Source of the DNA: Escherichia phage ECO95 1-6-1
Length of the DNA stretch: 5,346 nucleotides
Sequence record: OR845275.1
Direction: 5' to 3' (one strand)
In this document: positions 607-2,399 of the stretch, piece by piece
Numbering within the stretch: position 1 is the first letter of the stretch
How the letters are laid out: every line of letters begins with the position of its first letter
Position numbers and translations under genes: made by a program
Notes under the pieces: generated by a model
Told to the model about the DNA's origin: nothing
Seen by the model: only the letters and a program-made list of their open reading frames with translations
Database searches by the model: none

Positions 607-1755
607 TTAATTGAAGTTAGAGCACAATAAAGGCTCAACCTCTTCATTCAATAAGTTATACAATTGCTGTCCTATCTTCTGAGCTAGCAACACAGGAACT
701 GCATTACCAATCTGCCTCATAGCCTCCCCCCAAGCTCCTGCAATCAGAAACTCTCGAGGAAAAGTCTGAAGAAGCTTCCCTTCATAAACCGTAAAATAAC
801 GAACAGTCCCATCCTCATACCTAATCATATTTTCACCTCCAGGTACGCCATGAGCGCCAGCCTTAAGTGTTTTTGAAGGCAAATCGATATAACTTCCAGT
901 ATGACCAGGATAAACTCGAGCGCCATCTTTAAAGATATGATCTCCAATACCATGTGACTCATATGGTTGAGGAACATTCTTTAATGCGTCCCTAACAGTA
1001 ACCCAGCTTTTCCCCGATGGGGGGAAAATACCAAAACGTTTCATTAAACGCTCAGAAATACCTTTATCTATAACCGCATCAATATTATGCTTTCGCCAAT
1101 AGTCACCAGTAACATGCTGTTCCCACAGTAATTTTTCTTGAGTATGCGTTACGCTTGGAAAAGACCATTTTTTATTCAAATCACTTCGAACACCAACAAT
1201 TATGACCCGTTCCCTAATTTGTGGAACTCCATAATCAGCTGCATTGATCAATTTAAAACTGACATCATATGTACACCCACAGTGTTTATCCTTGCGAGCT
1301 TTTCTTAATGCATCTAGATGTATTCTCCAATCACTTACATTACTTAACGATAAACAAGGATAAGTCAAACGAAGAATTATGTATTCAAAATAATCCGCAA
1401 ATGATTTTCTAAGCAACCCTTTAACATTTTCAAAAATAAAAGCTTTTGGTTGCAATACTTCAATTGCTTTTATTGCAAATGGGAACATATCCCTAGAGTC
1501 ATCATGAGCTTTATGTTTTCCGCCCAATGAAAATGGTTGGCAGGGAGGCCCGCCAGCAACAATATCTATTTTATCTATAGATGAAAGGTCATAATTTTTA
1601 ATATCTCCCTGAAATACCTTCTCCTCATCAAAATTAAGTCGCAAAGAATCACATGCATGCTTGTTTAACTCAACAAATCCTACATGCTGAAATCCTGCCA
1701 ACTCTAGACCTTTAGCCAAACCGCCGGCTCCTGAAAAAATCTCTAATGATCTCAT
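607..1755 (-). CDS. eco29kIM: Type II DNA (cytosine-5)-methyltransferase, Eco29kI-type (382 aa)
   Basis: Translation shows canonical C5-MTase motifs: motif I FSGAGG, motif IV GPPCQPF (catalytic Cys), motif VI FENVKGL, motif VIII QIRERV, motif X GNAVPV. ATG at 1755-1753 overlaps the stop of the upstream R gene by 1 nt (TAATG). The 382-aa length equals what I recall for M.Eco29kI; identity to that specific enzyme is inferred, not searched. Confidence 0.88.
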   Translation of the reverse strand: MRSLEIFSGAGGLAKGLELAGFQHVGFVELNKHACDSLRLNFDEEKVFQGDIKNYDLSSIDKIDIVAGGPPCQPFSLGGKHKAHDDSRDMFPFAIKAIEVLQPKAFIFENVKGLLRKSFADYFEYIILRLTYPCLSLSNVSDWRIHLDALRKARKDKHCGCTYDVSFKLINAADYGVPQIRERVIIVGVRSDLNKKWSFPSVTHTQEKLLWEQHVTGDYWRKHNIDAVIDKGISERLMKRFGIFPPSGKSWVTVRDALKNVPQPYESHGIGDHIFKDGARVYPGHTGSYIDLPSKTLKAGAHGVPGGENMIRYEDGTVRYFTVYEGKLLQTFPREFLIAGAWGEAMRQIGNAVPVLLAQKIGQQLYNLLNEEVEPLLCSNFN

Positions 1756-2399
1756 TATGTAAAATTACTCTTAGAAAAATACTGTTTAATTCTCTCCTCA
1801 ATAAAGTATGGCTCAGAATGAACACCTGTACATTTCTCAGCCCACTCCCTGCCAGGATGTATTACATCCCAATCAGATTTAGCTTGCGCAAATCGCCCGG
1901 CACCAGGGGTATGATTTCCAAAGCCATCAACAACTGTATTCCACAAAGGCTTATAAATTTTAATAAGAGCGGCCTCAACTGTACTAATCATATCAGACCC
2001 CGTAGCCTCAAATATAACAAAGCGACATGAAAAATCACACAAATTTAGATTCGATGTTTTTGCTATATTTCGGCTATGTTCTCTAATTCTATTAGATAGT
2101 TCAGAACCAGCCCTAGTTTCATGATCACTAATTCTAGACTGACGCCAACCAGCAGGAACAGCCTTGCCAACATAAATAGGAAGGTTATATGCCAACCTAT
2201 TTATACGAGAGTATTCATCATATAATGAATAATGCCCTGTATAGTAAAGAGCATACACCCCAGCACCTTGAAACCGTTCCGGTGGTGGTAATGAATGAAC
2301 AGGCGTACCACTAAAAAAACGAACGGCATCTTTTATTAACTCTAGGAAAGAGTCATTTCTATAAACATGCTCAGATCTATCAAATTTCTTATTGTGCAT
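1755..2399 (-). CDS. eco29kIR: Type II restriction endonuclease, GIY-YIG family, Eco29kI-type (214 aa; predicted CCGCGG specificity)
   Basis: ATG at 2399-2397. The protein has a GIY-YIG-like core (GVYALYY ... PIYVGKA). Tyr49, Tyr76, Arg104, His108, Glu142 and Asn154 sit exactly at the positions I recall as the catalytic residues of R.Eco29kI, and the length is 214 aa. It lies directly upstream of, and is translationally coupled to, a C5-MTase. Specificity is inferred from family membership only. Confidence 0.8.
   Translation of the reverse strand: MHNKKFDRSEHVYRNDSFLELIKDAVRFFSGTPVHSLPPPERFQGAGVYALYYTGHYSLYDEYSRINRLAYNLPIYVGKAVPAGWRQSRISDHETRAGSELSNRIREHSRNIAKTSNLNLCDFSCRFVIFEATGSDMISTVEAALIKIYKPLWNTVVDGFGNHTPGAGRFAQAKSDWDVIHPGREWAEKCTGVHSEPYFIEERIKQYFSKSNFT

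Follow-up and report, generated by a model that had tools for sequence, protein, structure and literature searches.

The plasmid-borne locus considered here carries a restriction gene (R) directly in front of a modification gene (M), which raises the question of what kind of restriction-modification (R-M) system it is, how the two genes may be controlled, and what the operon means to the replicon that carries it. The window, i.e., the whole stretch of 5,346 nucleotides that was analyzed, begins and ends with the same 77 bases (1-77 and 5270-5346). It is therefore a circular molecule of 5269 bp that was read past its own start, and the repeated ends do not represent a true direct repeat. The molecule matches plasmid pC of Salmonella Enteritidis PT14b (NC_003457.1) over 5269/5269 bp with 100% identity, hence without a single difference, and further near-copies that are 99.3-100% identical are found in another Salmonella and in E. 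coli of human and chicken origin. A paper on pC, Gregorova et al. 2002 (FEMS Microbiol Lett 214:195), states in its title that the plasmid encodes an R-M system. Both the plasmid and its Eco29kI-type operon are already known (Gregorova et al. 2002; Eco29kI literature), as the initial annotation had anticipated in describing a known type of system rather than a new one; R and M each differ by two residues from their counterparts in the prototype on pECO29, and the plasmid itself had been published as pC. The locus is almost certainly the Eco29kI-type Type IIP R-M operon of Salmonella Enteritidis pC, an allele with approximately 99% identity to the pECO29 prototype that would work, and most likely is controlled, as Eco29kI.

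The R gene (1755-2399, minus strand) is an intact open reading frame (ORF) for a restriction endonuclease of 214 amino acids. A profile search, which the initial annotation had suggested as a check on its assignment of the protein to the GIY-YIG family of nucleases, yielded a match to the Pfam model RE_Eco29kI (PF09517) with a score of 233.2 bits (cutoff 30.8; E = 1.8e-69) that covers profile positions 1-163 of 164; in the NCBIfam search, no model matched R. Residues 2-214 align to the crystal structures of Eco29kI (3MX1, 3MX4, and 3NIC), and the alignment to 3MX1 (Eco29kIR; E = 1.7e-147) supports a GIY-YIG fold over this entire range, so that the assignment is borne out by both searches. Three mismatches with 3MX1 were found, of which two correspond to the allele differences described below and the third to a glutamine that replaces the catalytic E142 in the crystallized protein. 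All six active-site residues described for Eco29kI, i.e., Y49, Y76, R104, H108, E142, and N154 (PMC1952068), are present in R at exactly these positions, which had been named correctly in the earlier reading of the sequence. Mutants at five of these residues lost most or all cleavage activity, a mutant at Y76 was not obtained, and H108 was found to matter for DNA binding as well as for cleavage (PMC1952068). Compared to R.Eco29kI of pECO29, only G109S and D119N differ (212/214 identical). With this degree of identity, the nuclease of pC is expected to cleave CCGC/GG. Since Eco29kI cleaves this sequence as a dimer (PMC4081073), the pC enzyme would bind CCGCGG as a homodimer, in which each monomer would cut one strand.

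The M gene (607-1755, minus strand) encodes a C5 cytosine DNA methyltransferase of 382 amino acids. The protein matches the Pfam model DNA_methylase (PF00145) with 201 bits (cutoff 22; E = 4.2e-59) and the NCBIfam model dcm (TIGR00675) with 186.6 bits (cutoff 100.65; E = 8.9e-55). It contains motif I (FSGAG) at residue 7, motif IV (PPCQPFS, with the catalytic PCQ) at residue 70, motif VI (ENV) at residue 109, motif VIII (QIRER) at residue 179, and motif X (GNAVP) at residue 350. All motifs checked are thus present and both profile scores exceed their cutoffs, in agreement with its description as a textbook C5-methyltransferase. Only L60I and V149A distinguish the protein from M.Eco29kI of pECO29, and this identity at 380 of 382 positions points to CCGCGG as its target, the methylation of which would protect the host DNA. 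A helix-turn-helix (HTH) domain was not found in M in the Pfam and NCBIfam profile searches.

How may such an operon be controlled? R precedes M, and the junction between the two genes reads ACATAATGAG, in which the TAA stop of R overlaps the ATG start of M by a single base to give TAATG (1753-1757, read from 1757 to 1753 on the minus strand). Gene order and overlap are as first described, and the same overlap of stop and start codons has been reported for pECO29 (PMC3039593). Also, the PCR primers published for pECO29 match the ends of the R and M genes in the window, as judged by reading the sequence (PMC3039593). A gene for a controller (C) protein is not evident: six small ORFs, five of at least 40 amino acids in or beside the cassette and one in the origin region, have no significant match to Pfam families or to HTH motifs, which upholds the earlier statement that no such gene is present. 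The recognition sequence CCGCGG does not occur in the entire plasmid (1.1 sites expected; the absence is not significant). Consequently, digestion of plasmid DNA with SacII, a check suggested in the initial annotation, would be uninformative with respect to modification, as there is nothing to cut, and control of promoters through methylation of sites on the plasmid is impossible.

For the Eco29kI prototype, a control circuit has been demonstrated by experiment that would operate in much the same way in pC. According to PMC3113576, two σ70 promoters, Res_P1 and Res_P2, are located upstream of R, and a third promoter, Met_P, lies inside R and starts 227 bp upstream of the ATG of M; it has a plausible -10 element and no -35 element. 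In the same study, Met_P alone is reported to suffice for complete modification, and its transcripts to be translated approximately as efficiently as the bicistronic RNA. Furthermore, two antisense promoters, AS_P1 and AS_P2, are situated in the 5' part of R, and their RNAs block the initiation of R translation, as a result of which the bicistronic message is destabilized (PMC3113576). Transferred to pC, the two promoters upstream of R would most likely produce a bicistronic R-M RNA, Met_P would allow for the synthesis of the methylase on its own, and the antisense RNAs would prevent R translation and destabilize the bicistronic message, whilst neither a C protein nor feedback by the methylase would be involved in the control.

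Before accepting this circuit, the possibility should be considered that translational coupling to R, by way of the TAATG overlap, is the main source of M, with the timing set by feedback of the methylase on the promoters. Such a mode of control, which was favored in the initial annotation, would fit the one-base overlap of the stop and start codons, the fact that no strong Shine-Dalgarno sequence is obvious ahead of the ATG of M, and the lack of a C gene. The overlap itself stands, and translational coupling is plausible. As a requirement for the synthesis of M, however, it is at odds with the properties of Met_P in Eco29kI, which alone gives full modification from transcripts whose translation is nearly as efficient as that of the bicistronic RNA (PMC3113576). 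The feedback component is contradicted by the data on Eco29kI, and features of pC speak against it as well. The activity of the R promoters of Eco29kI was unchanged in the presence of the whole system, hence unaffected by its own products, and neither a recognition site nor an operator lies upstream of them (PMC3113576); there is no CCGCGG in the whole plasmid at which methylation could act on a promoter; and M does not contain an additional DNA-binding domain, unlike the methylase of a sister plasmid discussed below, which carries an extra HTH domain. Overall, control by coupling and feedback is quite improbable, and the Eco29kI circuit is the preferred explanation.

The promoters of this Eco29kI circuit were positioned on the window by means of the distances given in the text of PMC3113576, and their positions in pC are, therefore, predictions from a related plasmid. 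A generic promoter scan of the window recovered none of the published promoters, because Met_P and the others have no good -35 boxes. From the 227-bp distance, the Met_P transcript is expected to start at 1982 on the minus strand; a putative extended -10 element, TGATATGAT, without a -35 element is located at 1987-1995 (minus strand). The upstream R promoter would have its -10 element, TATCAT, at 2454-2449 and its start near G2444, and the downstream R promoter would have TAATAT at 2426-2421 and start near C2414, both on the minus strand. The triplets at these presumed starts, GAU and CUU, match the abortive products GpApU and CpUpU obtained with dinucleotide primers, but the names Res_P1 and Res_P2 are then swapped relative to the text (PMC3113576). 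If the upstream R start is at 2444, the candidate -10 elements of both antisense promoters, TATAAT of AS_P2 at 2221-2226 and TATAGT of AS_P1 at 2240-2245 (both on the plus strand), fall inside the fragment from +178 to +252 that was published to contain them (PMC3113576). Transcription on the plus strand would then start near 2233 and, from AS_P1, at approximately 2252. The latter position is 162 bp away from the start of the downstream R promoter at approximately 2414, and a distance of "~160 bp" is given in that source. Only the upstream start at 2444 fits all published fragments. Three other positions were considered for the +1 of that study and rejected: 2437, which is neither a C nor a G start and has no -10 element; 2414, with which the second R promoter would fall within the ORF and AS_P1 would lie beyond its fragment; and 2465, which would place Met_P outside its fragment. 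Over window positions 1-2562, 46 differences separate pC from pECO29, and none of them is located in the presumed -10 elements. The functional unit reaches past position 2399 to about 2480 and includes the R promoters.

The R-M segment is found with at least 98.8% identity in 17 plasmid records, most of which have one of two backbones, the 5.27-kb mobilizable pC type or the 3.9-kb pECO29 type; a few have odd sizes of 1984, 2365, 3743, and 5928 bp. Among 5426 complete E. coli genomes, 11 contain it, in each case on a plasmid. The exact R and the exact M proteins are each encoded on at least 1000 contigs, in the case of R in both Salmonella and E. coli, which argues for a maintained and functional system. 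It is most improbable, then, that G109S and/or D119N have inactivated the nuclease or altered its specificity, so that in effect only an orphan methylase or an enzyme of new specificity would remain: residue 109 does adjoin H108, with its role in DNA binding and cleavage discussed above, but the substitutions are conservative, both ORFs are of full length with the six active-site residues intact, the title of the paper of 2002 mentioned above states that pC encodes an R-M system, and such a wide occurrence of the exact R protein is not expected of a dead toxin-like gene, as these genes normally gather frameshifts.

The closest known relative, the system of E. coli plasmid pECO29 (NC_001537.1), has the same order of R and M, the same protein lengths of 214 and 382 amino acids, and the same TAATG overlap. 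Its R-M segment is 98.8% identical to that of pC at the DNA level (window positions 560-2500), and the predicted promoter hexamers are the same. The two plasmids also share a ColE1-type origin, with 98.3% identity over window positions 1-2562 and 88% over 4742-5267. However, pECO29, which is only 3895 bp in length, does not contain the mob genes and rop (window positions 2563-4741) that are present in pC. More distant is a chromosomal locus of Neisseria gonorrhoeae, which we take to be NgoMIII and which shows 64.6% DNA identity over 87% of the R-M segment. Cfr42I shares with Eco29kI its target, CCGC/GG, and its GIY-YIG catalytic site, but the Cfr42I tetramer requires two sites and the Eco29kI dimer acts on one (PMC4081073). 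Cfr42I and the gonococcal homolog, both of them CCGCGG isoschizomers with GIY-YIG nucleases, are distant relatives of the pC system rather than alleles of it. The logic of control is also shared with EcoRI-type operons, where R likewise, against intuition, precedes M and where M has a promoter inside R in addition to the antisense promoters (PMC3113576), but the EcoRI proteins, a PD-(D/E)XK nuclease and an N6-adenine methylase, are unrelated to those of Eco29kI.

The backbone of the plasmid is that of a mobilizable ColE1-type replicon, as is evident from the presence of RNAI, Rop, MbeA, MbeB, MbeC, and MbeD. RNAI, the antisense regulator of copy number, is located at 393-498 on the plus strand (Rfam RF00106; 66.6 bits; E = 4.6e-11), and rop/rom at 4622-4813 on the plus strand (Pfam Rop; E = 1.2e-37; also annotated). 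The mobilization region (2692-4582, minus strand), recognized by NCBIfam and Pfam profiles and by annotation, comprises the genes for the relaxase MbeA (2692-4245; NCBIfam relax_MbeA_E1; E = 1.9e-265), MbeB (3039-3557; Pfam MbeB_N), MbeD (2799-3032; Pfam MbeD_MobD), and MbeC (4235-4558; Pfam MobC), all on the minus strand. The mbeB and mbeD genes are nested in mbeA in another frame, an arrangement that is usual in the mob regions of ColE1 plasmids. The mbeA ORF is intact, yet it is absent from the PLSDB gene table of NC_003457.1. In the PLSDB typing, the plasmid is classified as mobilizable, MOBP, and rep_cluster_2350. A nic sequence, TATACTGGCTTAAC, is found at 4952 and resembles that of pBR322. 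A 52-amino acid ORF at 213-371 on the plus strand, inside the RNAII/origin region, is labeled "replication initiation protein" in RefSeq. To our knowledge, ColE1 replicons use no Rep protein, and the label, therefore, looks like an annotation artifact. A hairpin (527-549) with T-runs on both sides, which resembles a terminator on both strands, separates the end of M from the RNAII promoter. The R-M operon and RNAII are transcribed in the same direction, and read-through could, in principle, reach the promoter of the replication primer. The arrangement in pECO29 is the same.

Against this backbone, the R-M operon stands out as the sole cargo. Two sister ColE1 plasmids, here called L003 and L004, align only to window positions 1-559 and from 2479 or 2486 to 5267, which leaves the stretch of approximately 560-2485 as the only cargo. 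With a GC content of 38.2%, against 54.3% in the remainder of the plasmid, this module has the composition expected of acquired DNA, and it holds only R, M, and their control region; the other scanned ORFs of at least 40 amino acids in or beside it have no significant match to a protein family. Together with the matches of the backbone to Pfam, Rfam, and NCBIfam models, these limits support the view expressed in the initial annotation that this mobilizable ColE1-type plasmid has no cargo besides the operon. The left boundary (559/560) is located a short distance upstream of the RNAII promoter hairpin (527-549). On the right, only a few bases from the boundary with the backbone (2479-2486), a pattern match with zero occurrences expected by chance revealed a cer-like XerC/XerD core, GGTGCGCGTAA-TGCGACG-TTATGGTAAAT (2487-2515, minus strand), which we take to be comparable to cer of ColE1.

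The slot that corresponds to window positions 560-2485 is occupied by other genes in the sister plasmids. L004 contains there, at its positions 2138-4304, an EcoRII-C-type nuclease and a C5-methylase with an N-terminal HTH domain, and L003, at 1963-3998, genes for two proteins of 296 and 377 amino acids with no Pfam match. One further record (CP148309.1, here L005; 1984 bp), deposited as "circular plasmid", corresponds to window positions 526-2511. It consists of the R-M cassette alone, bounded by the RNAII promoter hairpin on one side and by the middle of the cer core on the other, and has no origin. The record is probably an assembly artifact that arose from two ColE1 plasmids with a common backbone in the same cell; less probably, it is a genuine excised circle.

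The identity between pC and pECO29 decays from about position 2507 and ends at 2562, and the coincidence of this decay and the cargo boundary with the cer-like core points to a link between cer and the exchange of modules. A bolder reading holds that the slot between the RNAII promoter hairpin (at about 559) and the cer core (2487-2515) is a site dedicated to exchange, at which ColE1 plasmids that reside in the same cell trade entire defense modules by Xer-mediated recombination; these might be Eco29kI in pC, the EcoRII-C-type nuclease with the HTH-containing methylase in L004, and the two genes noted above in L003. That reading is unlikely to be correct. Mosaicism linked to cer in R-M-bearing ColE1 plasmids has reportedly been proposed already for pECL18 and pKPN2, and in view of that proposal the dedicated slot would, even if true, be an incremental addition. 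A weaker alternative idea is that G109S, next to H108, might tune the activity or the specificity of the nuclease.

All that was checked of this locus is already in the literature, including the plasmid, both enzymes, the crystal structure of the nuclease, its catalytic residues, the control circuit, and the stabilization of plasmids. When expressed from its natural promoters, Eco29kI conferred an approximately 5 × 10^5-fold protection against phage, and it strongly stabilized plasmids, as cells that had lost the plasmid died by post-segregational killing (PMC11324026). By analogy, the operon of pC would provide its plasmid with phage restriction and post-segregational killing and thereby stabilize it. 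The value of the present analysis is in annotation, as the window can now be labeled as plasmid pC with an Eco29kI allele. Predicted to act in phage defense and addiction, this allele is a module that small mobilizable ColE1 plasmids spread between Salmonella and E. coli; in Salmonella Enteritidis, it is linked to a phage type.
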